From an uncultured Planctomycetales bacterium (GTDB taxonomy: Bacteria; Omnitrophota; Gorgyraeia; Gygaellales; Profunditerraquicolaceae): a DNA stretch of 62,135 nt. Position numbers and translations under genes: made by a program. The notes beneath the pieces are model-generated. The model was not told where the DNA came from and did no database searches. It worked only from the letters and a program-made list of their open reading frames with translations. Below, one piece after another: positions 8,139 through 37,800 of this stretch. The stretch's first letter is position 1, and each line of letters starts with the position of its first letter. The stretch covers positions 62,001-124,135 of the forward strand of contig CAZAPM010000005.1 of the NCBI GenBank assembly GCA_964487475.1, read 5' to 3'.

Positions 8139-8180
8139 ATGCTTCTAAGGGCAGAGTAGTGATGACCGGCTCTTTTTTTT
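8122..8180 (+). terminator. Riboswitch expression platform: terminator overlapping the aptamer 3' end
   Basis: AGCCGGGTTGCCACTA can pair with TAGTGATGACCGGCT, followed by a run of 8 T. Confidence 0.75.
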
Positions 8181-8190
8181 GAGGTGCCCC

Positions 8191-13800: not shown

Positions 13801-16800
13801 AACAGGATGCCGCCAATCAGTGGGTGACTGCGCAGGGAACCTATCGTTTCGGCCAGTCCCTCCAGGACCAGGATAAGGTGGGCATCACTTCCTACGTGAA
13901 TGGCAAGCTTAACGATTTCCATAAGACCACGTTCCAGAGCACGGAAGCGGAGATGGTTCGGACGTTCAAGGTCCAGAAGGACCAGATCGGCGCAGATGGA
14001 ATGGTGACCATTGAAAAGGTCAAGGGCAAGCCGTATATGGGCAAGGATGCGGAAGGTAAGGATGCGCTCCTGGTGGATATCCGCAGCGAGTATTTCCATT
14101 ACGGGGTTAAAGATATGCCGATCATGCCCGAAGGGATCGTGTCCCAGAACTCTGCGAAGGACCCGAACCTGGTCGCCTCCGAAATTCGCCTTAAAAACGA
14201 GCATACCTATAATTTTGCCGGCCAGCAGAAGGGCGTGGCCCTGTTCAAGGACTCGGATACTCTGGTCAGCTACGGAGTTGGGGAGACAGGCGCCGCGTTC
14301 ATTTCTCCCGTGACCCAGGCTACCGGCCTTACCTGGCAGGGCGCCAGGATCGAGAACGAGAAGACCGTGGATATCAAGGATGCGGTGTTCTGGGGGATCA
14401 ACCGGGATAAGAACGGGTTGACCCTTTCCTTCCTCGGCGCGAAGGGCGGCGCGGACGCGTTTACCTTCCTTCCCGGAGGACAGATCAAGAACGGCGGGAT
14501 GCTTTCTTTGACTTTCCTTTCCAATCCTCATGTGGAGAAGCGCGGAGTGAAGGCATTCGACCTGCCGAGCATCACCGCTATCACCGGCCTGGATTCCCTG
14601 TTGCAGGCCGATATTGACGCGCTCAAGGTCATTAAAGAAGGATCGGTATTGTACGGGTTTGACCGGGTCGCGACCTATATGGAGCAGTCGAAGGTCGGCG
14701 ATAAGTGGCAGTGGGGTATGGCCAAAGGGACGTACAATTTCGGGGTTGACCTGCAGAACAAGGCGATGGTCGGGATTTACGCCGCGGTAAATGGCGGCCA
14801 GGCGGATTATTATCCGACGTCCTTCCAGAGCACCGAAGCGATGATCAAGCAGAGCTATAAGGTGGAGAACGGCAAGGTCAGGATCGGGGACCAGGATTTT
14901 GCCGTGGTCGGAGGCAAGATCGTCAAGGACGGAAAGGAATTCTCCGTAAGGGAGATCAAGGACCAGGCGACACAGAAATCGATGCAGGTGGTGGATATCA
15001 CCGCGGAGTATCCTTTCTACGGAGTACGCAATCTGCCGATCCTTCCCGAAGGCCTGCTGGCGCAGGATGCTGCGGCCACGGGAACGACCGGTGCGCCGGT
15101 CGCGACCGAGGTGCTCCTGAACCAGGAGCACGCATATGCATTCGATCAGCAGCGGAAGGGCGTGATCCATTTCGCGGGATCCGATACCCTGGTCGCTTAC
15201 GGGGTGAACGAAGGGAAATCCTTCTTCTCTCCCATGGCCCAGGCGGCGAATCTGATCTGGGATAACACGCAGATAGAGAATAACGGAGTTGTCGGTAAGA
15301 GCGAGGCGATACTTTGGGGGATCACCCAGGAAAAGGATCAGCTTACCTTAACGTATATCGGCGCCAGGGATACCACCCGCAGGTTCGCGTTCCGCGAAGG
15401 CGGGGTGGTGGAAAATGGCGGCATGCTTATCGAGTCCTTTTTTAAGGCGCCTATGGTCAAGACCGAGAAACTCAATAACGGCCGCACCTTATCCACTGCC
15501 GTGAACAAGCTGATGTCCTATCGGGTCAACAGCAACGGTGAATGGACGGTACCGGAAGGGGAGATCAAGTTCGCGGAGGACACGAACTTCAAGATCTTCC
15601 AGCAGAAGGATGCCGGGGCGTGGAATGCGAAGGTCGTCGAGGCGCAGGATACGAGGCTTTCTCTGGTTGAAGATAAAGGCAAGGTGATCGCCGGCACTGA
15701 CGGCAAACCNNNNNNNNNNNNNNNNNNNNNNNNNNNNNNNNNNNNNNNNNNNNNNNNNNNNNNNNNNNNNNNNNNNNNNNNNNNNNNNNNNNNNNNNNNN
15801 NNNNNNNNNCTGGAGAAGATGTTCCATTATAAGGTCCGGGGATTGGATTTTATCGAACCCGGTAAGGGAGAAAAAGGAGAGCCTTCTTCTAGTTCCTATG
15901 TGCTCGGGTATACGCTGAACCATAAAAAGACGGATTTTGTAAACGATGCGGGTATTCTCTCCGCCGGTGATGCGGTCATGCCGGTGTTGATGGGGCTTAA
16001 TGAAAAGGGCGGCCTGGATTACAGCGCTTTGACCTTGGCGAAGGGGCTTTCCTATGCATATACGGCGCAGGACGGGGTGTATATCGGCACCCTGCGTCTG
16101 GAAGCGGACGGGCAGAAGATTAACGTCAATGACGGGAAGGTGATCGTTCCTTCGGGTTCCTATAAGGGGAGCGAGAAGCGCGGGGATCTGGTACTCAAGG
16201 CGGATTATGTGGTCGATGAGCAGGGCGGGATGAAAGCTTCCTCCGAACTGGCCGTGACCGATGCCGAAGGAAAAGCGATACGGTTCATCTCCATCAGCCC
16301 GGACAGCAAGATCGCGATCGATTCCAAGGGACGTATCTGGGACCTGGAAACCGGCAAGATCATGGATAAAAGGAATACCCAGACCGATTCCCTGGAGGCG
16401 GCATTCAATAAATACCTCGCAGAGCGCAAGAAGATCACCGAGCAGTTCGGGTATACCGGGGAGATCAAGGATGGGGTTACTTTTGCGCAGGGACCGTATG
16501 TCTATCAGATCAGCGATAAGGACGGGAACTTAAGCATTGCCGCGGTCAAATTCAGCATGAAACAGGGCCAGACCTTCAAGCTCAAGAACGGCCTGACGGT
16601 CAAGGCGGAGAAGGACGTGGAGTTGGCGATCTCTGCCGGCGCGGACGTGGATCTGAATAAGCTTCTCGGAGAAGGGGTGCTTTCCCTGCAGGGTACGCTC
16701 CGGGTGAAAGATAATGTCGTGATCAACGGGAACATCACCCTGACCCCGCTTTCCGAATATGACCTCACCTTTGCCAACGGCAAGCAGAATATCGCGGCCG

Positions 16801-19800
16801 GGACCCGTTTCAAGGGGAATAACGGCCTCATGTACGAAGCGGCGGCAGACGGTACCTTTAAGGTGGTGGGAGGAGCGCTTTCCAGCAAGAATGCGCTCTC
16901 CCTGGAAGGCGGCGCTTCCCTTGAGCCGGTGGGCGAATATCAGGTCACCTATAACGAGAACGGCGAAGCGGTCATTGCGGCCGGCACCCGTTTCCGGGAT
17001 AAGAAGGGGAATACGTTCGTCACGGATAAGGACGGGAAATTCCAGATGCATAGCGGGGTGACCACCTCCACGAATTCCATCACCCTTGATAACGGGGTCG
17101 AGCTTGTTCCGGTTCGTAATGCCAAGACCGCGGATGGCGGATATACCCTGTTTTGGAAGGACGGCAAGCCTACTATCGAGCGGGGCACCAAGTTCAAGGG
17201 GTCGAACGGCCTGGATTATATGGTTGGGGACACCGGAGAGTTCAAGGTGGTCGGCGGCACCCTGAAGACCAAGGATGCGGTCAAGGTCTCTGACGGAAAG
17301 GTGACCCTGACCCCGGTAAGCGAATACCTGGTGACCTTCAGCGAGGACGGGGATTCCCATATCGCGGCCGGCACCCGCTTCAACGGTTCTGACGGGCTGG
17401 TGTATCAGGTCGGCGCAAAGGAAATGTTCGAGGTAGTGGGCGGATCGAAGAAGGTACAGGAACCTATTAAGGTAAGCGACGGAAAGGTAACGCTCACTCC
17501 CGAGCAGGCGTACGTGATCACCTTCGACGAGAAGGGCCAGTCCCATATCGCCGCCGGGACCCAGTTCAAGGGGTCGGACGGTTTGGTGTACCGCGTGGGC
17601 GCCAACGAGATGTTCGAGGTGGTGGGCGGATCGAAAACGGTGCGCGATGTCATCACCGTGACCGGCGGGAAGGTGACCCTTTCCCCGGAAAAAGAGTATT
17701 CGGTTTCCTTCGACGAAAAGGGCCAGTCCCATATCGCGGTAGGCACCCGTTTTAAGGGATCGGACGGTTTGATCTACCGGGTGGGCGCCAACGAGATGTT
17801 CGAGGTGGTGGGCGGATCGACCCTTTCCAACAAACCGCTTGAGCCCAACGGCGAGAAACTGACCCCGGTGGCACCTTATCGGGTAAGCTTCAACGAGAAG
17901 GGTGAGGCGACGATCGAGGCGGGCGCGCAGTTCCAGACCAAGCAGGGGACTATCCTGGAAGTGGGTGTGGATGGTTCCCTTAAGCCGGTGACCAAGGGGA
18001 TCAAATTCGAGCTGGGTATCCCCCTGAAGGATGGCGTGATCAAACCGCAGGATATCAAGATCGAGCCGGAAAAGGAGAATAAGCCTTCCGCTGCCATCCC
18101 TGTTGAGAGCGAGTTCGAGACTGCCGCCTGGAGCGCGTGGGATAACGTGGCGGCTGAAGCGCAGGCAACGGTCATGGCGAATGGGTTCACCTATGAGGTC
18201 ATGACCGATCCGTTGCTTGTCCTGGCTGCGGTAAGCGAGGATATCGCGGCGCAGGAAGCGAAAGATAAGACGCAGAAGAGGACGGACCTGAATGCGAAGA
18301 TATCGATCCTTGAGAACAGGCTTTCGGAGTTGAACCAGAAGCATTATAAGGCGCTTGAGGCTGAAGGGGATCTTCCTCATCAGGGAACATGGGCTTGGAT
18401 AAAAGGAGCGATGCCGTGGAATCAATTTGATGATTCGGCAAAGATCGAAAGGGATAAAGTGATCGCCGATCTGCGCAGCCTCTATGCCGACCGCTATGCG
18501 CTCGATCCCGGCGCCATGCTGCAGGAAAAGAAGCAGCTGGAAGGCATCAGGGAATTCGCCCTGCCCGCATCGATCTCCGCGACCTGGATCAAACAGCAGG
18601 CGATCGAGGACCTTCTGAAGAAGTCGCCTATCGGCCGGGCCATGGTCGCGAGCGAAAAAGCCACCAAGCTTGCCGCGAACATGGAGTATGCCAAGGAGAT
18701 GCAGACCGAAGGCTGGTTCCGCGAGCAGTACAGCCTGACCAGATCTGAGGCGGTTAAAGTATTGGATCAGACTAACGAGAACATTAACCGTGAGAAAGCC
18801 GAACTGGCCAAGGAATTGTCCGAGATCGGAACCGTGTCTGACCTCCAGCTCAATACCCAGTTGCAGGCGACACAGATGGCGCTGCAGAATTTTGTGTCGG
18901 GCCAGGCTGATCTTCCCTCCTACGGCATTTGGTCCAAGCCGGAGCATCTTAAATCCGATGTGCGCCGTGTAGGCAGCAGTATGCTGGATTTTGGCGGAAG
19001 CGTAGTTTCTTATGCTGCGAACGATATGGTGTGGGATACCAGTTTAATGGTGCTGCATGGTGCGGTAGGAGGAGGCGAGGATTTGATCGGTTGGGCTTTT
19101 GGTAGCGAGAGCTGGTCTAAAGAGGCGAAGGATCATTACCGGATTTCTTTGCTTTATGGGATGAATGGCTTGACCGGTGATCTGACCGATGTTTTCCATG
19201 GAGAAGGCACCGTGCAGGATACCATGGAATGGGCGTTCCGCGGATCCGAAAAGTCGGATAATCTCAGGCTTGTCGATACTGAAGGGTCGGATTGGCAGGA
19301 ATGGACTTTTGAGGTGAAAGAATCCGGAAGGACTTTTGCGGTCAAGGGTGATGCGTTCACCATGGGTATCGGCCTGAATCTGATGAAAGAGGCAGGGATC
19401 CAGGATTGGAAGGAAGGCAGCAGCGCTTCGGGCGCGTTCAAGTATACGGTTGGACAGCTGGGCATGCTGAGCAAGACCGGAGTTGAGCTTGCGGCAACCG
19501 GAAAAGCTGCCGGATTAAATATAGGTAAAGGCACTTTCGCGGTTGCCGGTGGCACGCAGGTTATCGGGGACTCGGTCAAATACGCAACGACCGGGGAGTT
19601 CCTTGGCGGCAGAGACACTACGCCGATGGCGGTTTCTTTTGCGTTGCCGGCTGCCGGCGTCAAGATCGCCAGTGAGCTGGGAACGGCTTTGAAGGCGGTC
19701 AACGTCGCGGCGACAGTAGCTCCTTCTGCGGGCAAGCTGAACGCGGTATTTGCTCCTATAGCCGTAAAAGCGGTACAGGGAGCGCAGTGGGCTGCGAATG

Positions 19801-22800
19801 CTCAGCTTTCGAGAGCAGCTTTTGCCTGGGAAAATTTTTCAGTATCCGTGAACCAGATAAGTTCGATCGGTACCACCGGCAAGCCGATGTCTTTAAGCCA
19901 ATCAGTGGGCACGGTAGCCACTTCATACGCGTTCCAGCTGGCCGGCTTAAGCGTGGTCAATGTTGCAGGGAAAGCGATTAATCTTGCCGGCACGGCGATC
20001 TCTCCGAGCTCGGTGAGTACCTTGCAGGCAATTGGAAGGGCGGTCGGGCCTACCAGCAAGTTTGCCTGGGCCAGCTATCCTTCGGCGGGTGCGGTCGCAG
20101 GATTGGCGTATAACCGCGTGAGCACCGGGGAGTGGATCAATGAGAGCACTTTGAAAAACGTAGGTATAGGCGCGGCGGTCGGGTTGGGAGTGAAAGGGGT
20201 GTTTTCCGTAGGTAATACAGTTGCCGCGGTCAACCAGGCTTCTTCCGGAACGGTTTCTTCTTCCTCCCTGGCGGCGAAAGTCATTCGTCCCGTAGTTTCC
20301 TTCGTCAAAGAGGATATCGGCTTGGCGCATCCCGTGCAGTTCCTTTCCGGATCTACGGCCGCGGCATTCATGGAAAAAGACGCGCCGTTGGTATCTTCGG
20401 TAGGCGGGTGGCAGGAGAATATGGTCGCTTCGTTGATGCTTGCTCCCGGCCGCGGAGTCTTGAGCGCAGTGGGAGACCTCGGGAATACTCTCGGGATCTC
20501 GAATTCGCTTTCTGCCCGGATGAGCGAGATAAACCTGGTCGAGATGGAGCTTAGCAACAACGACCTCCAGCATCACTGGTGGGGAGTTCCCGTGGCGTTC
20601 ACTTCTTCCGCGCTGCGCGTAGGAAGCCAGATGTACTCCGGATCTTACGCCTTGCAACTCGGGGCCAGGCCGAGCTTGGTCGTGACCGGCATCACCGATA
20701 CGCTCGGTTTCGCCAAAGAGGTGATGGATAATGTCAAGGGCACTCCTAGCGCAAGGCCTCTGCGTGCGGTGGATGTCGCCTCGACCCTGGGCGGCTTGAC
20801 TGGTATGTTCGTTGGAGCAAGAGGTGTTCCCGGGACCAGGATCAGCGGGTTATCTTCGCGCATTAATAACTCTTTTCTGAAGGGGGTCGTGGCGAATACT
20901 CCCGTCTATGCGGCGGTGGGTACCGGGGTCGGCGCCCTGGCAAGCAAATGGCAGAGCGATTCCTTAGGGGAATATTTCTATCAGAGCGGCAGGAACGTTG
21001 ACCAGAATGCTATCAGCTCCATGGGAGCTGCGGTGGCGTTCAACGGACTTGGCCGTGCGGTCAAAGCGATCAGCACGTCCGGCGCGGGCGGGGCAAAGAT
21101 CGTAGGGCTTTCCGTAGGAAGCGCGCTGGTGACCGGTACGGCGGATTACGCGAACGCCTTGATCAACAAACAGGAGTATACCTTTACCCGCGGCGCGGTC
21201 GCCGCCGGCACCGGATTTGCGCTGGCTTCGGGAGCATTGATGCTCGGTGGAAGGATCCGCTCCTTAGGCGCGGTTTCCCAGTATATCAAGTATCCGGTCA
21301 GCATGGGCCTGATCTCCGGCGCCAGCACGATCGCCGCAGCAGGAGTTTCTGGACAGAATTATAGCAAGCTTTCCCTGGCAGCGACCTCCCTGGGGACGAC
21401 CGTGGTCACTGGTCTGGCGCTGAAAAATCCCGGAACGAACCCCGTGGGAAGCAAGCTCGAGGCGGTCAGGTTCTTCAAGAACGTCGGGGAATCTTTCGGT
21501 ATCAATACCGCCAGAAGCGGGCTGCGTATCGGCAGTACCCGGTTAGGGGTCAATCCTTTCACCTTGAAAGCCGCTCCTTTCTATCTGGGCGTTGTTCCCG
21601 GATCTGCCATGGCTTTAGGTTTTGTGCCGGAGTCAGTGGTGTCCGCGCCTAAGCAGAGGATATTCTCCGCCATTGCCATCGCCGCAGGTACTACCATGAT
21701 GTTCTGGAATATGCGCCAGGTTAACACCGGCGGCAATACCGGCATGCGGGCTTTGTTCAGCGCTAAGGATGGCGTATGGAATTATCGTCCGGCATGGGTA
21801 GGCGCGAATGTTGCCGGTGCCTACATCCTTAATTCCGATAAGATCGGATTGAATAAGAAGCTGGGAGATAATCTCGGGCTGGTTAATATTGGCCTGGGAA
21901 TAAGCATGGCTGCGGCGGCTGCGGGGTACGGCAATGTGCTGAAGAATATGGCCAAGCCTCAGTGGATGGGAGAGAATTTCTGGAGCGCGAGGGCCTTGGC
22001 TGCCGATGCATCAAAGTGGGCAAAAGTGAATAGGTTTGCAGCCCAGGCTATAACGTCCAGGGCCGCGTTCTGGGGAGGAACGAGTGCCTGGGTTTTCGGT
22101 GCGCCGGCAGCGTACGAGCTTGTCACGGGTAATGATTACGAAAAGAGCGATTTTAAGAGCGTGCATCAGTGGGGATCCGCGGGCCTGCTTGCCGCGGGTA
22201 TCTTTGTCCCCGGTTTAAAGCCCGGATTGCAGAATCTGCGTCAGAAGTTCTATCTGCTCCAGAACGGGGAGAACATGATCTTTGCCCACCAGATGGCAAA
22301 GACCGCGCTTCCGATGATCCCTGCCTTGACCACGGGTATGGCGTTCTTCCCGGATCTCCAGAATTATTTGTTCAGGCAGGAGGGGAGTTGGGCCAGCGCA
22401 GCAAAATCGGCTTTCAATTACGAAGAGTTTGTTACCGGTTACAACAAGATGTTCCCCAACGAGCCTTACAATTCTGAGCTTGGCTATTTTGAAGCCCAGA
22501 AAAAAATGATGATCGCGCAGATGGCAGGTGAGTTGCAGAAGATGAACCCCGCCTCTCAGCAGTACAAGAATCTTTCCAAGCAGCTCGATTATTATAGGAA
22601 TGCAGACGTCAATAAGAGCTCCAAGTTCCTGGGCATCCCTGTTGGCAACGAGTTCCGCTGGCTCTTGCGTTCCCAGCAGGCGTATGAAGGGTTGAAGGTG
22701 GCGTTTTACTTCGGGCCTCTTATGGAATTTGCCAGACCTTTCCTTACCGAAGGTTTGACCAGGATCCCCGTATTAGGCGATCTGCAGGCGGTCATGGGCG

Positions 22801-25800
22801 AAGGGGCGGGAAGCAGGGGAGTATCCATGGGCGATACCCTCGTTCCGTTAGGGGATCTGCAGTCCGCATTGTATGCCCGCGGCGGCGCTGCCAGAGTGGT
22901 GAGCCATGCCGTGAAAGCCGCGGATCTGTTCCAGGGCTTGATGATGGAGGAGCAGGTAAGGGAGCATATCGCGACCATAGCACTCGGCAGTACGTTCAAA
23001 AAAGCGGGGGTCACGATCTTTAGCCCTGATTCCAGCGATCCTAATTACTCTGCGCTTAGCTTAGGGGCAGAAACCTTCCAGGAAAGCTTTGAAGGTACGG
23101 GTAGATTCAGCACTTCCCGCTTGAACAGGGCTACAATAAACGGCCTTACTTCCGGAGACTTTAGGCTTTGGCGTATTGATCTTCCGATCGGATATCGTCC
23201 TGCTTCTGGCAGCGCTGCTCCGGCAGATGCAGCTTCAATTAATTCCCGCTTAAGCGCTCCGGCTTCCCAGGGAAGCGCCTTGCGCGATATTGCAAATCTT
23301 CCGCAAGGAACAAGGGTTTTTGTTGAGGTATTGAACAATAACAATGTCCATTTTGCACAGGGAAGATATGAATTTGAGGTTGAGGAAGCAAAGGTATGGT
23401 CTTTACCAATAAATACTTATGTTAATTACTTGGACTTCAATGCTAATGTCCAATCTGGGAGCATTTCTCCTGTAGATGTTGTCAATACCGCATTGACCGG
23501 TGGCGTGGATTCAGATGATCCTCAGATCCAGGGAGCACGGTTATTTGTTGCCGAGCACCTTGATCCGGTTACTGCTGCCAAGGTTGAACACCCCAGCGCA
23601 TTAGGTTATCTTACCGTGAATGCCGGTAGCGCTTCAGCGGTTATCCCTGCAAAACTGATCGCGCCTCATTTGTATGACAGAATGGTCACTGATCCGGTAT
23701 TCAAGCAGGATGTGCTCAGGGCCTTCCCTGGTATTACGGCTGCTCCTGCTGCTACCAATGTGAATTTAGGTGCATTACCCTTTATGATCACCGCTTCTTC
23801 TGCAGGGTATGATCCTTCTGCTCAATTCGAAGGTCAGTATGTGCAGTGGGTGCATTCGAGCGCACCGCATTTGCTCAAAGCGCAGAAGTTCTATGTTCAG
23901 GATGGCGGTAAGGCCGTAGAGGTGATCCTGCAGGACGGGGCGTATTTAGGTGTGAACGGAGTGACGTATGCGCCTGAGCGTGTTACCGAAGTACAGCAGA
24001 TCAGCGGCATGTACGAATGGGTAAGTGCTAAGCGTAAGGATGCAAAAGCAGGTTTGGGAGCCGGAGCGATCGGTGCGGATGGCAGAGCGATCGTGTTTAT
24101 CGACGCTTCTCAGCAGTTTGATGCAAATAATCCTTTTGATTCTGTGCTGGTGCGCCACGAGAGAAATGAGGTTTCCCGTCAGGCCAAGATGGGTCAGCGT
24201 TTGCCTGGTTCCGCGTCGGCAGCATCCAGATTCGAAGGGATCGCTTCTTTGTCAGGATATACGGCGAGGCAGTCGGGTGCCCGCAGCCGTCAGATCTGGC
24301 AGCTTACCGATGCCAATGCTCCGGTTCTTCCGGAAGCATCCTTTGCCGCTGCCCAAGTGAAGACTGTCGCACCGGTTTTGCCTGCGCAGGGCAATATGCT
24401 TTCCGCTGCGGCGCCGGTATTCGTAACGGCCTTTTCTGCCGGCCACGATGCTGTTTCTGAAGAGGCGACTGCCGAAGATAAGCAGATCGCGGCACTTGCG
24501 CTGCAGTTGCTGGAGGCCAAGTTGGATATGCCTTTTGAGCCTTCCAGGGTTAGGGATGCTCAGACACTGGCAGTTCAGCTCCAGGAGGCAAAGGCAAAAC
24601 AGAAATATGACAGTGCGTTGGCTGGTTTCGGCGTCGACCGCAGCACCTGGTGGAGCCGCGTGAAGTTCGACGTGTTCGGCGTAGGCAAGAAGGCGGTGCA
24701 GGAGCAGATCGGGCAGCAGGAGAAGGCGAAGGCTGAAGCCCGCCTGCAGGAGCTCAACGAGCAGCGCAAGATGCTGCAGCTTAATTTCAGCGATGACGAA
24801 GTGCGGGGCATGATCGCGCAGGAGAAGAAGCTTGCGGACCCGGCTACGGTCACCGCGGAAGATATCGCCGCCAAGAGGGAGGAATTCGCGCAGGCGCAGT
24901 CCTTCATCTTCGGCCTGGAGATCGCCCGCGAAGAGGGAGTGCCTTTCGATAAGGTCAACCCGCGCAGGCTGGAAGCCAAGAAGAACGAGAAGCTGAGCGG
25001 TATCAATCAGGAAGCCGCGTTCTGGGCTAAGGTGCTGCTTAAAGAAGTTCCTCTCAAACAGTATTTCGAAATGAATGAAGCGGTGCAGAGCCGGCAGGTA
25101 GCGGCGTTCATGCCCAGGGCTTTGACCGCAGGTCTGGAGCCTTCGACGCTTGGCCTGGCTTCCTGGAATGAGCTCAAGGGTAATGTCCAGGAGGATGCGC
25201 AGCCGGGCGTCTTTACGGTCAAGGGTAGAAAGGTCGAGCTGGTCAATGTGCCGCAGTTCATCTCTTCCGCGCTGAAAGTTCCCGAGCCGATCAACTTCGA
25301 TCTGGCTTTGGTCAAGACGAACGAGCAGGGTGAGAAGCTCATTCCGTTGAATGTGGGCACCCTGGTGCAGAAGCAGGACGGCACCTGGGTGGTCCGTACG
25401 AGCATGCCTAAGGAAACTCCCGCTCCCGCGGCCGATGCGCTGAAGACCGCGGAGGCAGAACAGAAGGCGCCGGAGCTGGTCACCACGGAAACTCCTGTGG
25501 TGCTGGGCCAGGCAGTAGAGCTGGCAAGGACCGAGGCGGAAGGCAAAGGCACCAGATTCTTCGTAGAGGAGCTTACTCCCGGCACGCTGACCGTGACCCC
25601 GATGCAGAGCTTCGCGCAGAGACAGGCGCTGGCGCAGATGCATACGGAGTTCCTCAGGAGCATGCCCGGATACACCGCGGGCAACAACAATTGGTTCGCG
25701 TATACGGGCGATGCCGCGACCTTCCAGCCGTTGAGGGCAAGATTGATGGGTATGGCCCAGGAAGCGGATGCGGCGGCTGAATCTCAGGCTGCCGGTGCAA

Positions 25801-28800
25801 TCGATCTGGCGGCGCTGGAAAGCCAGCTCGCCAATGAGATACGCGCGGCAGTGAGGGAGAGCAGGCCTGCAGCCAACCGTTTCGATATGATCCTTCCCCA
25901 GTTGCCCGCAGGCAGCCCGCTTCGCCTGGCAGCTGAGGCGTTGAGGGCAGAAGTTGAAGGCAAGGCGGAGTTCGATCTGGATCTGACCAAGCTGCCTCAT
26001 TTCGCCGCGCTGCAGGATGCGGAACGTCAGTTCCTGGCGATCCTGGCACAGCCTTCGCAGGGTGCGGGTGTTGCCGAGGTTCCTGCTGCGGGTGCGGAAA
26101 CTCCGGAAAAAGCGCAGTTAAGACAGCTTATCGCTACCATTGCCAATAGCAAAGAGACCGAAGAGAATCGCCAGAAGGCGTTGGAGGCGACCAAGGACCT
26201 GTATTATGAAATGTTCGACCGTACCACCAGGAACAAGAGGTTCATGGATCTGATGGCGCAGTTGAACAAAGAGAACCCGAACGTGGATTACCGTTTCATC
26301 ATCCAGGGAGACGGGCAGAGATTCGCGGATTATCGCGATAAGATCATCGGTATCGAGCAGTATTACCGGGCCCGGTTCGGAGCTCAGAACACCTCTGCCG
26401 CGTTCGGCAGGGCTATGTCGGTCATCAATGAGCTCTGGAGCAACGTCTATAAATACGGCGACTGGGGTTTGATGATCGTAGAGAAGGCCGAAGACAGGAT
26501 GATCGTCAGGGTCAAGGATAAAGGACCCGGGTTCATCCTGGGTATGCCGAAGAGCTTGACCGCAGGGGTGACTACCGGCGGTACTCCGGGTATGGGGTAT
26601 CCTACCCAGACCATCGATAAGGCGGACAGGATCGTCGTCAGCTCCGGGCCTGCGCGGCATGTTTCCGGCCAGCTCGGGCTTGACCGGCATGCGGCCTTCA
26701 CCCAGCTGGTGAACAACGATCATCCGGTGACGGGTGTGGAAACCGTGGCCGAGGTCTGGCTTGCTCCTCAGAAGCCCGTTCCTCCTGCCAATGACAGGCT
26801 GGATATGATGGGGATATCCCAGTCTGCCCGCCAGTTGCTTTATTTAGGTAAATTAGCCGTCTACGGGGCCCGCAGAGCATGGGCAAGGATGAACAATCAG
26901 GCCGCGGATACCGGAACTTCGCTTCCGCAGCCTATGTCCGCCACTCCTGCGGTCCCTGCGACGAATGTCCCGGCGCCTGCGGCTACCGGATCTACCGGTA
27001 ACGGCACCGGCAATGGTTCGAATTCGGGTGGTACCCGGATCGTGGGCTCCCTGGTCAGCGGGTCCATGACCGCAAACCACCTTAACTGGGCTAATAACCC
27101 TGGTTTGCCTGCACAATTCAATGCCACGGATGCACACCTGGGCGGACAGTTAGCCCCCACCAGCACTCAGACCGGCGGTCCTTCTCAGGCCGGTCCGGGC
27201 GGCCGTAGTATCGCGGCTGGCCTTGCCCAAGGCCAGGTCGTGGTTCCATACAGTGGGGCAAAGGCCCAGAATGGGTCTGCATATCTTGGTGTAGTGTTTG
27301 GAGTTACAACAGTAGTTGCAGGTGTTGTAGTAGGAGTCACCAGTGGTATCGTAGCAGCAGGCGCGGTCGTAGCGCTTGGTGTAATTGCGATAGGTGCCCT
27401 TTCTGCGTCCTCGAGAACCACGAACGCAGCCGAAAGCAGGGCTGATAATAGAGGAAGCGAAGCTCCGATCGCAGGTGAAACAAGCCCGGTTGCCAGCAAT
27501 GGCAATGCAGGCAATGGTTCCAAGAGTATCGCCGCATATACCGCGGATGCCCCTGTTACGGGGGTTGGCGCCTTGATGCGCGCCAATGGTTCTGAAGTAC
27601 TGATGCCGAGCAATCCGGCGTTGGGAGAACCCAAAAACCACGGTCCTCCGGCAGGTTCCCTTTCTACGCTTTCCAGTCTGGACAATTCAACGGTTGGTGC
27701 TCTCGCAAGAGGCGTTTCCACCACTGAATCTGCTGTTTCCCCCGAAGTAGCCGATCACAGGTTTACCGCGAATTCCGTCAATAATCCTATAAATGTGAAC
27801 GAGCCGCACACTGCTCTTCCTTCCGTGGCAGGAATTAGAGCTTTTGTTGCGGCTTATGTTGTAAATGGGCGCTCCGCAGAAGTCCCCACCTCCGGGGAAC
27901 TGACCACTTCTGCCGGGGCGCCCTTTACAACGAAAGGAGCATTAAAATGTGCACAATCAAATTCGAAGAACTGGAATTCGATCATATGGTCGAATTTATC
28001 AAGGATTCAACAGTATTTCTCTCAGGCCGTGAATCAGGCAGCGGCAAGGTTCGCCTCTTCCTTATTCATGAGGATACCGGCAACGTTTATACGCGCAATG
28101 GCCGGGTTGATTCCTGGGAAGAGCTCGAAGGCAACTTCCGCGATGCCGTTGTCTCCCGCCTCTACGCTTTCCGCGACCGGATCCCGGTCTACCGCGTTAA
28201 CGGTACTCACGAAGTACACGCCTAAAGCGTTGATGTGTGCGGCCGCACTACTGCCTTTCGCGATGGCGGCTGCGGCTCAGGCGCAGGGAGTGGACGCGCC
28301 GGTCTTGACCGAAAGAGAGTTCGTGGACGGGTTCTGGCTGAAGGTCCTGGCGGTTGCCGGTGCCTTCAGCGTGATGGGCGTAGGCGTGTTCCTGGCGGCG
28401 CTTAAATTCACCCGCTGGTCTGCGCAGAGGGCTTTGAAGGTCGCCGGCATGACCGTCGGTATCGTGGCGGTGCTTGGCGTCGGCGCCGGATATACCTATG
28501 ATAAGAGCGATGCCGCGATCGCCACCCTTAAACTTGATCCGCGCAGCGTGGGTATCGCTCCCGCTCAGGATAGCGTCAAGGTCGCGCCGCTTTCCTATTA
28601 TCTGGTCAATGATGACGGTTCGATCGAGCCTGCCGGCTGGCTGGTAATTGACGGCAAGGAATATCATGATTTCAATCCGCTCGGCATCATCAAGGGCAAC
28701 GGTCTTTTCGTGCAGCTTTCCAACGGCGCCTGCCGCGTGCTTTCCCTCGAGAGGATGGGAGACAGTGTTAATCTTGAAGAAACCTTGCGCAAGGCGGGGA

Positions 28801-31800
28801 TTGCCAAGGCGGTGATCTTGAATGCGGCGCAGATGGGCCCGATGGCCATCGTCAACGGCAAGATCGTCCTGAAAAAAGGCTGGGATGCCGGTGCGCTTAA
28901 TTTCCTCGGCATTACCCGCGAGGGATATGTGGTATTGATCAAGACGGAAGGCGTGTTGCTCGGCCAGGTCGGCCAGAACGGTATGGATATCGCCAAGAAG
29001 GCTCTGGCCCTGGGCGTTGTCGAAGGCGCGTTCATTGATGGCGGCGCGACCGATGAAGTGTACAAATCCGTGAACGGACTTTTCATAAGCAAGGCGCGGT
29101 TGAATGGTTTCGTGGCCCAGCAGCTTAAGCAGCAGGAACAGCAGAAGAAGCAGGCTCCTGCTGCGCCTAAGGCTCCCGCGCCCGCTCCGAAGGCTTCCGG
29201 CAAGCGCAATGCCCGTCCGCGCAAGGCAGGGGAGAAGAAGGTGGGCGCGCTGGTTGGCGCCAAGGCGACAGAGACCGCGGCGAAGACCATGTCGCCTGCG
29301 GTGCATGACCGCAGAGGATTCCTGAAGACCCTGGCCATGCTGGCTGCGGCGGCATTCGCCTCCGTGTCGGTAAAAGCGGCGCAGAAGGCTGCGGCGGCAG
29401 TGGCTCCGGATATGGATTCCGCCATGCAGGCGGTGTATTGCTGTCTTTCCACCACGACGCAGACCTATAAGATCGCGGAAGGCGACACCCTGGGTAAGAT
29501 CGCCCGTAAATTCAACACCACCATCGAGTTGATCAAAGTGCTTAACGGCCTTAAGAACGACACGATCATAGCAGGCCGTACCCTGGAAATTCCGCAGTAC
29601 AGCGCGTTCCTGGCGGTGAATCCTCAGACCGGGGCGCTGCGCATCGGTATCTATGACAAGGATTCCCGCCTGATCGGTGATTTCGAGTTCATGGTCGGCA
29701 CTGGCGAGAAAGAATCCCCGACCCCGGCCGGCGATTTTACCGTGATCAATCGTCTTTCGAGACCCGAATGGTGGATGAGCAAGAACAATCCCGATACGGT
29801 CATCCGCTACGGGCAGGCGCATTATCCTTACGGGCCGCTCGCGCTGCTGCTTAAGACCAACAGGAATTTCGATTTCCACACCGTTCCTTCCGATTGGCGC
29901 AAGGAAGGCCCGGTTTCCCATGGCTGCATCCGTATGTCCGATGAGCTGGCGAAGATGCTGTGGGCGGTGGTCAGGGAAGGCACCCGCGGCATCGTGACCA
30001 GCGCCGCGTATCAGTTCCCGCAGACGATGGCCCCTAAGGCTGTGAGCAGGAACGAAGCCGGATTCGCCGATCCCCGCGTCATGGCGGGTGTGGTGGGAGT
30101 GTTCGGTATCGCGGCGTTCGCGTTCGGGTATTTCGCGCTCGGTATGGCCGCTCTGGCGATCAGCGCCGGCAGCATAGCGGTGATGAAAGCCGCCTCCAAG
30201 AGCGAGGCCCGTTTTGACGCCGGCCGCCGCGAGGCGCTGCGTACCATGGGTTTTGTCGCCGCAGGGCTGGCGCTCGGCGGAGCGGATGCGCTGGCGAATG
30301 TGCGCACCACTGCCGCGACGATGCCTCTGACCGATCTTACCCGCGTGGTCGATGGGGTGCTGCGCCACACCGATCCGCACCTCTTCGCAGGCAATACAGT
30401 GGCTCCGGGCCAGGAGAAGAAGTATTCGCACCTGATGTATATGCTGATGGCGACCGCGATCCAGGAATCCGATCTGCGCACGAGTGGGCTGGAGAACGGG
30501 ATGTGGCAGGTGCTTCTGCCCGATGCGCTGGTCTTTGTGCGCACCACCATCGCGCTTCTCGATCAGGCGCAGGCGGCCCGCTCCGAAGTGCTGCTCCATA
30601 CGATCAAGAAGGGTGATTCCCTTGAGTCGGTCACCAGAGAGTATGCGCGCGCGAAGGGTCTGGTCTGGGGCGCGGAGATGGTCAAGGCTGCGGCGGCCAA
30701 TAACAACTTTAAGAAGAACGGTAACGGGCATTATATCCTTACCCCCGGTGCGAAGATGAAAGTGGTGCTGCCGGTGGTGGAGCGTGCGACCTGGCAGAAC
30801 GCTTTGAAGGGGATCACCGGCAAGGCTCGCGCGGACCTCATGAACAACTCCGCGGAAGTAAGCAGGCTTTTGAAGACCAGCCCGGCGTTCGGCTGCTTCC
30901 TGGCGCGCGTGCTGTACCGTTCCCGCGCGGAAAACGAGATCAACGCGCTTCCTTCCCGCGACCAGATGGCAGCGGCTCTGGCGAGATCTTTAGGCCGCGC
31001 CCCCAGCGCCGATGAGCTGAACAAGGATTTTGCGCGCCGCGCTTCGAACATCTGGTACGAGAATTACAACGCGAGCAAGGACAGGGTCGCGGAGAAGAAG
31101 TCGAGATTCGTGTCCCGTATGGCGGCGGTGGCGACCGGCCTGGCGAAGTATGTTGCGCTGATCGTGCTCTTCCTGGCCGCGACCGCGAAGGCGGCGGCGG
31201 GCCCGTTGGTTGGTGCGGCGGCGCCTGCGGCGAAGACCGCGGGCCTGACCTTGTCTGCGGCGATGCCGGTCATCATCGGGCTGGTGGCGTTTGTCGGCTT
31301 GCTCGGGTTGATCTACTTGATCAGCAAATCGCACGAAGCGCAGCAGAATAAGGCTCCGGAGCTGATCGATGANNNNNNNNNNNNNNNNNNNNNNNNNNNN
31401 NNNNNNNNNNNNNNNNNNNNNNNNNNNNNNNNNNNNNNNNNNNNNNNNNNNNNNNNNNNNNNNNNNNNNNNNAAGCATTGGCTGGAGGAGAATCCGAAGG
31501 CGACCTTTGAGCAGAGACTGGATAAGGTCTTCGACCTGATGAAGGGTTCGATCTACGCGCGCATCGGCCGCGCCCTGGAGATCGATAAGGTTGATGCGCA
31601 GTTCATCTCCGGCCTGGTGGCTTTTGTCGAGAAGACCATGGTCGTGACAGAAGGCGGGGAAGGCTCTTCCGATCCTCTCGCCCTGCGCGCCAGGATCATC
31701 GCCAAGATCGGCCAGATGGTAAAAGACATCCGTACTCCGGCCAAGATGGCAGAGCTTAGCGATGCGCTGAAGGATTTCGAGCTTAAGTCCATTGCCAACG

Positions 31801-34800
31801 CCACCGTGCTGGAAGGTGTCGCGACCGCGGATACGGATTCCTACCTGGCGCGTAAGGGTGCGGTGTACCGGGCCGCGGTGCTGGAAGCGGCGATCTCCAA
31901 GATCGAACTGGCGTGGCAGCAGTTCCAGGGCACCAAGGCTGACGCAGCTGCGGCAAAGCAGGCGTATGATGCGGCAGTAGCGGCAGTGGAGAAGGAAGAA
32001 GCTGAGATCGCCGCGGAACTGGTGAAGCTGCTGCCTGACCTGGCCGGAAAGAATCCTACCGCCGGCCTGAAAAAAGGACTTTCCACCGGCACCAAGGTGG
32101 CCCTCGTGGCTGCCGCGGCGATGCTGGTTTCTGCCGCAGCGCTGGCCGGGACCCCGGCGGATGATCAGAACGCCGGTTCCGATGATGTGTTCCAGAGGGC
32201 TTTCGACAAGCATGACGAGGCGGCTCTGGACGGCTCCAAATATTATGAAACCGGCCGCGAAGCGTCCGTAGGCACGAAGGGCGCGGTTGCGCTGGGAGCG
32301 ATCGGCCTGGCTTCCTTGCTTTCCCTCGGTGTCGGGATCAGGAATAAGAAAGCAGTATATAAGGTTGCCGGTATCGCCGGCCTGATGGCCTTAAGCGTGG
32401 TCGGCATTGGCCTGGCCAATGGTTACGGATATTCCGATTTCGAAGAGGATGCGGGCGTCCTCTATTGCAAGATGTTCGATCAGGCGCGTTTGGACCAGGC
32501 CACCCTGGGAGATTTCCAGCTGGGCAAGGATGTGTGCGAAGCGTTGAAGGATGCCAAGCCGGAACTTAAGCACATGCCTTGGCATGAGATCGCCTCCGAT
32601 TCGCAGCTTAGCCGCGAAGCCGCCCAGCATTACCTGTTCAACTGCGTGAACGATCTTAGGAACGAAGCACGCAGCATCCGCGTATCCCCGATGGATATGA
32701 CCGAAGAGCAGCTGTGGGTCAACGTGCTTTCCAGCTTCCCGAGCTCGGCCATGCTCAAGGGCCAGTCGATCATCGCCTGGCACGTGCAGAACCGCTCCGC
32801 GGCATACGGATTGAATCCCCAGTTCAAGGGGATCCCGACCGCGAAGCAGCTTGAAGGGGCGCTGTATGAGCTGGGCAAGAAGTACGGCTTCGACGATGCC
32901 AAAGCCCGCCGCGAAGCGTTCCTGGCGGCGCACGGCCGTCACTTCCCGCTCAAGGCTAACGGTACCTACCAGATCTCGGCGCAGTATAACGGCAAGGCGG
33001 TTTCCCTGACGGTGACCAATCCCGGCCAGGCGACCTTGACGGACGTGCTTTCCAGCCACCTGAAAGTGGCGGCATCCCAGCTGCCGGCAGAGGTTCAGAT
33101 CCGGAACGGTTCTTCCACGAACAGCATTACGGTGTACCTGGTGGGCGAAGATTACAAGATGTCCGGTGTCACGCTGGCGACTTTCTTCAGGACCGAGATC
33201 GGCAAGAAGATCTTCGATGAAGTGGGCGCCGCCAATATCTATCCTTCCGCTGACGACGTGATCAAGCGCGACCCGAGCGGCCAGCTCAGGGCGTTCAACC
33301 GCGGGGCGAATATCGTCAAGACCCAGATGCAGGGCATCGATCTCGCGGGCGGTCTGTACACCGATGCGGAAAAAGCGATGGTGCAGAATGCGCCGGTCAA
33401 AGTTCCTTTTGCCCTTACCACCCGCGATATGTTCGGCGCGCGCCGCGGTAACGGGGAGAGGACCCATCAGGGCGTAGATTACCGCGTGGCTGCCGGCACC
33501 CCGGTGTATGCGGTGGATGCGGGCAAGGTCCGTTTCGCCGGTGAATATGACACCAACTATTACGGCAATGTGGTGATGATCGAGCACGCCAACGGAACGG
33601 TAAGCTTCTATGCGCATAACGAGAAGAATGTAGTAAAGGCAGGGGAAAGCGTTGCGCGCGGCCAGCAGGTAGCTACTGTCGGCCGCAGCGGCAACGCCAG
33701 CGAAGTCGGCGACATGCTGCATTTCGAGATCCGCCAGGGTGAAAANNNNNNNNNNNNNNNNNNNNNNNNNNNNNNNNNNNNNNNNNNNNNNNNNNNNNNN
33801 NNNNNNNNNNNNNNNNNNNNNNNNNNNNNNNNNNNNNNNNNNNNNCCGCGCCTGCGGTTGCTCCCGCTCCTGTGGTGGCTGCCGCGCCGGCAGTTGCGGC
33901 GCCCAAGTTTGACAATGACCTTTATAACGCGGAAAATGCCCTTGCCCGCGCGATGGATGAGCAGGAAGAAGAGCTGATGTGGCAGCTGGATCATCAGAGG
34001 ATCCTGGCGCAGAAGATGCAGCAGCGTAAGGATCTCGATGCGCAGATCGCAGGGATCCAGAAGACCATTACCGATTCTCAGCGCCGCCATGCAGATCGCG
34101 CCAAGGCCATTGAAGCGCTTCGCGGCCAGGTCACGTCCCTGCAGGCCAAGGCAGCTGAAGCTGCTCCGGCCGCTCCTGCGGTACCTGCAGCGCCTGCCGT
34201 TGCAGCGGCCTCCAAGCCTGTGTCCGGCCAGCAGCCGGCAGTGGCGGCGGCTTCTGCGGTCCGTCCGGGAGTTCCCGCGGCAGCCGGCACTGTGGCATCC
34301 GCGACCGAGATCTCCAAGAAGCCTGTAGCGCTTACCCCGACCACCGGACTGGCTCCTCCGGCCGTGTTCTCGACCAAAGGCTTCCAGGTACTCGTCAACG
34401 GCAAGCCTTTCTACGGCCTTACCATCGATGCCGAAACCTTCACCCACTCCGATGTCAATGCCCTTATCGGTAACGCAGTCCGCACGTACTATCCTATCGA
34501 CCTCAATCTCCTCAAGACCATCATCGATTCCGGAAAAGCCGATACGGTCTTCATCGGCATGGTCCTCAATGACTATGCGTATGACAACCTGACCCAGTTC
34601 TGGGGCAATACCGTTCCTGTCAGAAGCGACCGTATCACCATCGAAAAGGGCAATTACCTTGAATATATGCGTCAGGCCCTGGCGATCGCCCGCGGCAAGG
34701 CCACCTTAGTCTTCGAGCTCGGCAACGAATACAATTTCGCGCACAATTATCCCAAGTGGACCGGAAAGCCGGTGCAGGCCTGGTTCGATACCGTGGACGA

Positions 34801-37800
34801 GGAAGCCAGGAAGATGCATCAGCGTTTCGGCAGGGAAGCCAAGGTCTCCGTGGTCATCGGCGACGTACCGGATCATTTCGAAGCGGTGGCCCGTACTTCC
34901 GTGGATATGGTCGGCATCAACAGCTACCGCGGTGTGGGCGAGCTGGTCGCGGCCTGGCAGAGAGAATCCGCCAAGTCGGGAAAGACCATGCCCATGTACT
35001 TCGCGGAGCACGGCGCGCAGTCGACCACCGGCGAAGAGACCCAGCTTACCCGGGTACGCCGCGTGTATGAAGAGGCCCGTCAGCTGGGCATGTCCGCGCT
35101 GTTCATGAGCTTCGAGGATAACTCCCGCAAGGGCAATGACGACGGATGGGGCTGGTACGGCAAGAAGGTCTATGCCGCGATGCAGGAGCAGTGGAAGGGT
35201 ATCGCTCCCGCGCCCAAGTACGGCATCTCCGTGCCGGCAGGCCAGATCGCCGCCGCGTCCGATGCCGCGACCATCGCCCAGAGAGAAGCCAAGCTTTCCT
35301 ATATCGACCGTGAGCTCTCGAGAGCCACGCTGGCCCTGGAGAAAAAGCAGGCCCAGCTCGATGCGCGCAAGCAGGCATTGGCGCGTATGAACCAGGGTAT
35401 TGCCGCGGATTCCTTTGCCGGTATCTCCCTGGATGCCGCGCTCGTGACCGCGCTCGACCGTACCTATTTCGCCGGAGAGCATGAGGTCACCGGCCTTTTC
35501 GCCGCGTACCTGAAGGACGAGAGCCGCCGCCTGGAAGGCCTGCGCAACTATATGCAGGATATGGGCAATACCCGGGCCAAATCCGCGGCCGATATTACGG
35601 CTGCCTTCGCGGCGCTTCGTACCGACCTGATCAGCCAGGCGAAGCAGCTGCAGGATAAGGTCACCCTGGCGATGCAGAAGAAGGGCGCCGATAAGGAGGC
35701 CCTGGGCGTCATCGCCGCGTTCCTGGATAAGGACCTGCAGAGCCTGGAAGCCGCCACTGCCCCGAACGTGGCCGCGGTGGAAGCGTATACCAGAAATCAC
35801 ATGCTCAATCAGCAGGGCCAGATCTACCTCGACCTGACCTATTCCCAGGCTGCCTTCAGCGAGCTTTATTCGAATTTCATCAACCTGCGCAACACCTTCT
35901 TCGAGCTGGTCAAGGATACCAAGTCCAAGAACAAGAGCGAGCTGGCGGCGTTGTACATGGGCTTTGAGAAGGGCTTTGCCAACACCCTGGTCTCCTTCGG
36001 CAAGGTCAACGATATCAACTTCGGGGTGCAGATCGGCGGAGACCTGGCGCCTCTGACGGACGCCATCCAGATCATCTACGGGTTCGTGACCGAAGAGATG
36101 AGCATGACCAATATGGTGCTGGCTTCCCTGGCGCTCTATGACGACTTCACCACCCTCTGGCAGCTCCCGCAGGCCCGCCACCTGAAGGACGTGGGCGGCA
36201 TCATCATCCCGCTGCCCAAGGATGAGCAGCTGCGCCGCATCGGTATCACCCTCTTCGGCCACAACATCGGTGTCGGCGAGGGCGGGTTCATCGCCAAGGA
36301 TAAAGGCTCCTTCTTCGGTCTTAATGCCCTGATCGCCGAGCTGAAGCTGGGCAACAAGATGAAGGTGGGAGTCGATGTGTGGCTGGTCGAAGTGGAGGCA
36401 GGCGTCGATTTCGAGCACAGACTCAAGCATATCCTGCCCAACGTGATCCTGAACGCGTCCCTCTTCGGGGATAAGGTATACCTGCTCCAGACCAAATACG
36501 GCACCTATGCGTACTTCCCGACCATCGCTGCTAAGGACGGGGTCAACGCCTTTACCCAGAAGAGAGAATCCGATTTCTATGACATGAGGCTCTTCGGCGA
36601 ATGCCTCAACAGCTTCCTCGAGCATGCCTTCCAGGGCAAACTGCCGAAGGAGTACACCGCGGTGTACGTGCCTTCCCGCGTGCAGATGGAAGCGTACCGC
36701 CGCGCCGTGACCGGGGAAGAGCCGAACGCCAAGTACGACGGCAAGATCGAAGACCTGGATATGAAGATCGGCAAGATTGACCGCGAGCTTAAGAAGCTTG
36801 GCGAGAAGAAGTCTTCCGCCCGCGTGCAGAAGCAGGTCGCGCAGCTGCAGCAGGAGCGCCAGCCGCTGGATGCGCAGAGAGCGGAACTGCGCCGCCAGAA
36901 GCTCGCGGAGCAGAAGGGCGACTATTCTTACTGGATCAAGATGGATCTCAATACGCATCTGCAGACCATCTTCCGTTACAACCTGAAGAACGGGGCTTCC
37001 GAGGTCATCTCCCGGGTCAATATGTTCTACCGTGACGAGACCAAGGCCTCCAACGCGGTCAGGACCGCCAATAATTTCGAGACCGAGAAGTATCTGAAGG
37101 CGTTGAACCTCTGGCCCTGGAAGTCCGCCGCAGACGAGGAGGCCAATCCGGTCAAGTTGATGAAGGTGGCCAGCGTCAAGGATTTCGGCAAGATGGATGC
37201 CATCTTCCGCGGCGCGATCGAAGGGTTCGGCGCGCAGACGGATATCCTGGGCAACGCCGTGAAGGTGTCGGAGACCATGGAAGAGGTTCCGGCCATGTTC
37301 TATGGCATGGTGCCGCAGAGACAGAACAGCGCCTTTGTGTTCGACGCCCAGGGCAACCCCAAGATGACCATGGCGCCCATCAATCCGGACAGCGGCGCGG
37401 TGGGTACCTTCAGCCTTAAGATGCCTCTGATCCGTCAGTTCATGCAGGAGAACAAGACCGGTATCCAGCACGTCTCCTTCGCGAACACCGGCAAGGCGTT
37501 CATGAGACTGCAGCAGCCGGTCGCAGTGGAGAAGGCGAAGGCCGGGGAGAAGTATACCGCCGAATACGTAGTGACCGGGTTGAACGGCGAAGAGCGCAAG
37601 ATCAAGCTCGACCTTACCTTTGCCGAAGGCGAAATGATCACCTTTGACGCCGCGACCGCGCGCAACAGCGCGTTTGAGACCAAGGCGGGGGATAGGCCGT
37701 TCGCGTTCGTCCGCCAGATCACCGTGAACGTTCCGCAGGCCATTGCCTGGACCTTCCGTCAGGGCGAAGGCGCTAAGGCGGTCGATGCGGCCGAACTGGC

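Follow-up and report, generated by a model that had tools for sequence, protein, structure and literature searches.

Results

A small gene lies out of frame in a giant open reading frame

The window, i.e. the whole stretch of 62,135 nucleotides that was analysed, carries on its plus strand a giant open reading frame (ORF) of 7,700 codons (10875..33977) with three scaffold gaps of 100 N each (15710-15809, 31373-31472 and 33746-33845), and a probable continuation on the same strand (33872..62134; at least 9,421 codons) that is open up to the contig end. Because the gap at 33746-33845 shifts the frame and the second ORF runs open to the contig end, we infer that the two ORFs are probably one gene. 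A C39 peptidase domain (11499..11756, plus strand) marks the N-terminal start of the giant, LysM, L,D-transpeptidase and M23 peptidase domains follow later in the first part, and hydrophobic segments are numerous. The host thus combines an ORF of more than 20 kb, an N-terminal C39 domain and multiple hydrophobic segments, the characters of a C39-type giant; SecA-like and other Archaeovorin-type domains were not found in a domain scan of the window's part of the giant. Giant proteins with an N-terminal C39 peptidase have been described from Omnitrophota (10.1101/2023.11.21.568195; 10.64898/2026.06.07.730766; PMC10066038), and, judged by the accessible parts of these reports, the present giant resembles them in its giant ORF, N-terminal C39 domain, hydrophobic segments, peptidoglycan-active domains and a Tad-type gene upstream.

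Several side observations concern the giant itself. The gene preceding it (window 8179-10347) contains a 272-aa region 61% identical to giant residues 311-580, and a 28%-identical counterpart of the LysM/L,D-transpeptidase region (giant residues 6191-6363) is located elsewhere on the same contig (C5 7130-7615). Ahead of modules we repeatedly noted a short RFD/RLD-like motif (giant residues 5001, 5307 and 6445), in one case ahead of a twin-arginine-like segment, which may mark sites of processing. Other contigs of this genome (C15, C16, C22 and C23) hold open frames of 16,838, 7,804, 5,655 and 4,959 codons, respectively, C15 and C22 having a 55-nt end overlap in common; these frames may be further pieces of one giant. 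In the second giant frame, a low-GC stretch (window 55676-59540) shows atypical codon use.

Inside the N-free stretch 15810-31372, 16.4 kb downstream of the C39 domain, lies a small gene of 92 amino acids, here called gene B (27947..28225, plus strand), with its ATG at 27947, a TAA stop at 28223-28225 and, separated from the ATG by a 7-nt spacer, the Shine-Dalgarno (SD) site AAAGGAG (27933..27939, plus strand). The sequence-only reading had recognised this 92-codon ORF behind AAAGGAG-N7-ATG inside the giant ORF, and it was confirmed at 27933-28225, the giant frame 10875-33977 being open over it. The same bases, read with a shift of one (27948..28226, plus strand), supply giant residues 5692-5784; this frame is open throughout and encodes a Ser/Ala/Thr-rich linker with zero Asp or Glu, constrained only to avoid stops. 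In a codon model trained on 795 ordinary ORFs of the genome, the giant frame over gene B does look like the off-frame text it had been taken for (0.5th percentile of in-frame and 77th percentile of off-frame windows), while the supposedly host-like codons of the small frame proved host-like only weakly (9th percentile of in-frame windows). Off-frame scores of the giant frame extend over window 27159-28260 and so also cover about 0.8 kb upstream of the nested gene. A match of 29-53 nt at 27211-27262 is common to the window and three other loci (L007, L019 and L098); considered as a protein motif, it did not generalise.

The length of gene B alone is not special, since the giant frames of this genome contain 55 alternative-frame ATG ORFs of at least 90 codons (in 180 kb); what goes beyond chance is its homology and its conserved nesting. 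Misassembly, against which the first reading had cautioned, is excluded: contigs of two studies, one of which may be the source sample, each cover the nested gene singly with zero differences in the gene (X1 27571-29957, X3 27414-29000), and gap-free giants, the longest of 82,151 aa, show the same nested layout.

Directly after the nested stop the giant frame encodes a hydrophobic, signal-like segment (28227..28283, plus strand) whose sequence is not conserved. This segment, which had been noticed early on, is present in the window as described but is only partly general among the copies, a hydrophobic 15-mer being present behind the nested stop in 42 of 79 copies, compared with 301 of 1863 downstream windows. 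A giant-frame ATG is rarer there than in the background (2 of 79 copies; 171 of 1863), so the segment does not mark where a separate or coupled gene begins, and re-initiation in the giant frame past the nested stop was rejected.

Nesting is conserved and selection acts on the small frame

We examined 102 copies of gene B, one weak match (E 2e-3) having been dropped. A copy was regarded as nested when the shifted frame was open for at least 500 codons, nine copies being judged on loci of at most 3.3 kb. By this definition 82 of the 102 copies are nested, in one phase throughout; the copies are related, so that this and the following counts are not independent trials and overstate independence. 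Across the 82 nested genes the giant frame contains no stop and the third frame 653, whereas the 20 free copies show 73 stops in the giant-equivalent frame, spread over 19 of the 20 genes; synonymous shuffles of 29 nested copies gave an expectation of 34.9 giant-frame stops against 0 observed. ATG is the start codon of all 82 nested copies, an SD match of at least 5 nt is present in 77, and the distance from GGAG to ATG is 7 nt in 69 of 75. The single phase argues for a single old origin of the nesting.

Gene B lies 13-48 kb after the C39 domain in the 28 genomes with both on one contig, and within the first 8-30% of nine giants of at least 30,000 aa. The giant flanks of the cassette are not homologous between the window and the other loci, which leaves the cassette as the only conserved island. 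Within the window's family, a C39 domain was detected in 23 of the 28 genomes with gene B and in 8 of the 20 checked genomes among the 31 that lack the gene (frames of 422-4,939 aa), a co-occurrence that is confounded by incomplete assemblies; giants may therefore exist without gene B, or the assemblies are incomplete.

Identity of the small frame exceeded that of the giant frame in 404 of 406 pairs (29 copies), and variation was highest at third codon positions of the small frame, which correspond to second positions in the giant frame (0.60 vs 0.41 and 0.32). The per-frame comparison of dN/dS, suggested at the outset as a check, came out clearly in 13 hand-picked close pairs: the small frame gave 0.05-0.19 in 12 of them (one was saturated), the giant frame 1.06-3.61 over the same bases. 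These values above 1 reflect the constraint on the small frame and not positive selection. With dN/dS of 0.15-0.66 in the giant's flanks (eight pairs with sufficient alignment), conservation is stronger in the nested gene than in the parts of the giant on either side of it. Across copies, Asp and Glu are scarce and small residues abundant in the giant frame over gene B, and the giant thus requires an open frame here but not those residues. The absence of amino-acid constraint together with complete stop avoidance indicates that read-through itself is selected. Gene B thus lies wholly inside an open frame, has its own SD, start and stop, and is under purifying selection while the host frame is maintained, as is characteristic of a same-strand nested gene.

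A structured RNA leader precedes the nested gene

The region ahead of the SD (27801-27931), whose structure was predicted on the plus strand, folds into two hairpins (-73.4 kcal/mol, z -6.07). Hairpin 1 (27801..27855, plus strand) exposes a conserved GUGGCA loop (27825-27830) and also has a terminator-like score, and hairpin 2 (27858..27931, plus strand) consists of a long covarying stem with a conserved CCUCC loop and a CUGAC bulge. Because the minus strand folds equally well (z -6.29), position and G-U pairs had to decide which strand carries the RNA. In an alignment of 19 copies, picked for carrying the motif, 24 of 30 pairs showed two-sided change, a value reached in 0 of 500 shuffles and above all slid controls. 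The SD is largely open in the predicted fold. An AT-rich tract precedes the leader (27770..27800, plus strand; 74% AT vs 54% locally) and is seen in 20 loci, and no match to a sigma-70 promoter was found at the leader in the window. Searching 16 loci against Rfam 15 returned four matches, all with E of at least 0.23, far below the gathering score and off the leader.

Structured leaders accompany nesting: of 80 nested copies, 61 have an upstream fold with z of -2 or lower, compared with 5 of 19 free copies (1 of 13 copies in the dcw cluster, see below) and 2 of 78 controls. Distant nested copies outside the window's family have a different long hairpin as leader. A comparable fold after the stop (z of -2 or lower) occurs in 23 of 79 copies and is absent in the window. 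The leader model finds one copy in this genome; relatives carry tandem copies, often without SD. Loci with two to five tandem leader copies, many with no SD behind them, include L086:6048-7242, L076, L077, L078, L097 and L098, and isolated leader copies occur several kb off in such loci. An anti-SD role of the CCUCC loop is unsupported, many leader copies being SD-less and the SD being open in the predicted fold. A putative pairing of the CCUCC loop with the loop of hairpin 1 was also noticed.

The protein family and its predicted fold

A protein search restricted to lengths of 50-161 aa returned 34 candidates, among them 31 homologs of 89-98 aa with 50-64% identity to the gene B protein. A profile search with no length limit yielded 179 representatives at 50% clustering, and the best 150 of these 179 are nearly all 76-124 aa long. 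In a census of 401 genomes of the phylum, 73 matched the single gene B protein and 83 the deeper profile, all 83 within the window's class. Relatives were also found in 27 titled records (18 Omnitrophota, six Planctomycetales and three other), some of which duplicate census genomes; in all 27 the gene is nested in the same phase.

The structure model of the gene B protein (pLDDT 83.9 with 32 sequences, 90.6 with 146) shows a five-strand beta-meander, a helix and a last, C-terminal strand. Arg, His and Trp residues are conserved in the family, whose median net charge of +1 is weak for an RNA binder. Pfam, NCBIfam, PHROGs, the sequences of solved structures and Atlas gave no match that would name the family. 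Foldseek returned no match in the PDB at E 0.001 or better, and neither the best match in a viral structure library (E 0.0036) nor the best VIA-align scores (Z 5.2 and 5.1, AcrIF13, 59 aligned) represents a clear fold match. SpoVG is a nucleic-acid-binding protein. The gene B model is similar to it in size and in the order of elements (beta-meander plus helix), but the structural score lies within background (Z 4.3, 76 residues aligned, rmsd 4.1), hhalign gave a probability of 0.5% with a shallow and partial SpoVG profile, and PF04026 (SpoVG) matched none of the 146 family members among the best 25 of 34 families. This genome carries SpoVG genes of its own. In L147 and its relatives, also Omnitrophota, SpoVG has a Cys-rich, zinc-ribbon-like insertion. 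Taken together, the product of gene B appears to be a folded, cytoplasmic protein of about 90 aa; its conservation is evident from the comparisons above, and its translation may be inferred from them.

Free copies and a second nested family

Stand-alone homologs of the 92-aa protein, which the sequence-only reading had proposed to look for, exist: 20 of the 102 copies are free. Fourteen of them lie between mraZ and rsmH in the dcw cluster (L033, L040, L042, L045-L047, L050, L054, L057-L059, L061, L123 and L125), the others ahead of dprA-topA, ahead of a pilin cluster or close to envelope genes; the neighbours were identified in part by NCBIfam names and for the rest by size, synteny or tblastn. 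Two conserved Cys characterise the dcw copies, which fall into a single clade and mostly have no structured leader. One genome contains three free copies (L038, upstream of 8156; L066; L124), and ahead of two of these (L038 and L066) there are repeated hairpins whose CCCCCAGGG motifs resemble hairpin 2. The genome under study has no gene between mraZ and rsmH and a single copy of gene B.

In a tree of 101 copies and 90 columns, one truncated copy being omitted, the dcw clade (support 0.96) is placed inside nested clades. Midpoint-rooted parsimony reconstructs nesting at the root and the free state as derived, with four changes, on a gene tree that has no outgroup, an uncertain root and weak deep supports. 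An ancient engulfment of a free gene is possible.

A second nested family was encountered 340-660 nt upstream of gene B, in the other alternative frame. Its members are 43-57 aa long, have a strong SD and probably encode a helical product; none of the 21 distinct sequences is crossed by a stop in the giant frame (L031, L071, L073-L075, L079-L084, L089, L094, L095, L100, L104, L111, L114, L026, L028 and L030). The family was not found in the window and has no Pfam match above cut-off. Of 138 alternative-frame starts that combine SD and ATG, in loci selected around the first family, that family accounts for 84 and the second for 29.

Discussion

Few nested same-strand genes of bacteria have been characterised, and gene callers drop such genes; two had been named before 2019, according to the part of PMC11230408 that was accessible. 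In that same part, comS is described as lying out of frame within the srfA operon of Bacillus subtilis, gndA in E. coli gnd as an ORF of 36 aa and young age that overprints a conserved enzyme, and rpmH as overlapping in Thermus. On this description, gene B is like comS in its layout: in both cases a very large coding sequence harbours a small gene that lies on the same strand, has its own start and is made from the same locus. It differs from comS in that it encodes about 90 aa with a predicted globular fold behind a covarying RNA leader, is spread over many families of one class, has free homologs and sometimes a second nested gene beside it, and sits in a host frame that is a drifting linker. 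With gndA and rpmH, again as described there, it shares the nature of a frameshifted internal ORF with conserved SD, start and stop; unlike in gndA, it is the nested gene that is conserved, the host residues being free of constraint. The accessible text of the three reports on giants (10.1101/2023.11.21.568195; 10.64898/2026.06.07.730766; PMC10066038) makes no mention of nested genes, internal SD sites or internal RNA leaders, and we found no report of nested genes in Omnitrophota giants in the literature searched, subscription journals and preprint supplements being outside its scope.

Two origins had been offered for the locus, true dual coding or a giant that had grown by reading through a formerly independent gene. 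The evolutionary evidence, namely homologs, selection on the small frame and a giant frame kept free of stops, supports the former, and gene B very probably represents true, maintained dual coding rather than a decaying fossil. One stretch of the giant mRNA would then serve two sets of ribosomes. Those making the giant would cross gene B as a disposable Ser/Thr/Ala linker whose sole need, to judge from its evolution, is the absence of stops, and others may load at the internal SD site and make the protein of about 90 aa. Since intergenic copies mostly lack the hairpins, we suspect that these are a device for initiation within a translated ORF, and we lean, with some reserve, towards a role in which they stall giant-frame ribosomes or provide a processed, stabilising or internal 5' end.

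As to function, the protein most probably acts as an accessory factor whose production keeps pace with long envelope-related transcripts and which serves them or their products. It could tentatively be viewed as an RNA- or transcription-linked expression factor, a reading suggested by its placement in giants and in the dcw cluster and by the conserved Arg, His and Trp residues, against which stands the near-neutral charge. A protein-binding chaperone or guard for the cell-wall-active domains of the giant, itself a doubtful proposal, fits the same contexts, and the two readings are nearly tied. A more speculative idea, which we consider rather unlikely, is that leader, 90-aa protein and, in some lineages, the helical partner of 43-57 aa in the third frame form a nested mini-operon that acts, a tenth to a third into the giants, as a checkpoint: the factor would be made only once transcription and translation arrive, would keep the remaining 100-200 kb expressed, and would later have been recruited to the long dcw operon.

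The alternative that survives best, although we hold it to be unlikely, is that gene B is an independent internal transcription unit or hitch-hiking cassette for which the giant is a safe site and whose function is unrelated. It does not conflict with dual coding, from which it departs only as regards transcript and purpose. The AT-rich tract ahead of hairpin 1 (20 loci), the status of the cassette as the only conserved island in the loci, and the occurrence of tandem leader copies and paralogous genes would fit such a unit. On the other side, a sigma-70 promoter match is absent at the window's leader, a fold after the stop is restricted to 23 of 79 copies and missing in the window, this genome has a single leader and a single gene copy, and the position is confined to the first 8-30% of the nine largest giants considered (at least 30,000 aa).

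Far less probable is the fossil of read-through, in which the giant lately extended across a free gene that is by now incidental or in decay. It could draw on the free-standing homologs (20 of 102), on the roughly 1.1 kb, from about 27159 to 28260, over which the giant frame looks off-frame, and on flanks that are not homologous between loci; indeed, the giant frame does behave like read-through text over gene B, and this part of the early suggestion stands. The idea of a fossil is not supported: the small frame is under strong purifying selection and outconserves the giant's flanks, the one phase in 82 of 82 nested copies points to a single old origin, nesting is the state at the midpoint root with the free copies, including the dcw clade within the nested clades, derived, and this genome has neither a gene between mraZ and rsmH nor a second copy of gene B.

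A programmed -1 frameshift, by which giant-frame ribosomes would slip into the small frame and yield a truncated giant ending in a gene B domain, is more improbable still and was rejected. The small frame is indeed -1 relative to the giant, and internal SD-like sites and structure are known frameshift stimulators, but an X-XXY-YYZ slippery heptamer occurs near the start in 0 of 82 copies, the universal ATG and the spacing (7 nt in 69 of 75) are typical of initiation, and the structure lies upstream and not downstream. That the small ORF is a mere shadow of a conserved giant-frame motif or RNA element, as the abundance of long alternative-frame ORFs in these giants (55 in 180 kb) might suggest, is refuted, with next to no probability left, by the peak of variation at the small frame's third position, by the dN/dS values of the two frames and by free copies that encode the same protein with no giant frame. 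An assembly artefact, at which the three scaffold gaps might hint, has a similarly negligible probability and is refuted by the agreement between the contigs of two studies and by gap-free giants with the same layout.

Gene B, maintained in dual coding as we propose, is old, widespread and more conserved than its host, and its free copies are a natural control. One protein and one RNA leader make a small and abundant-looking target for experiments. If the checkpoint reading were true, the giants would be single-frame polycistrons that encode their own expression factor. Through the selection for read-through, the locus also bears, by indirect evidence, on whether the Omnitrophota ORFs of 40,000-80,000 codons are read as one chain.
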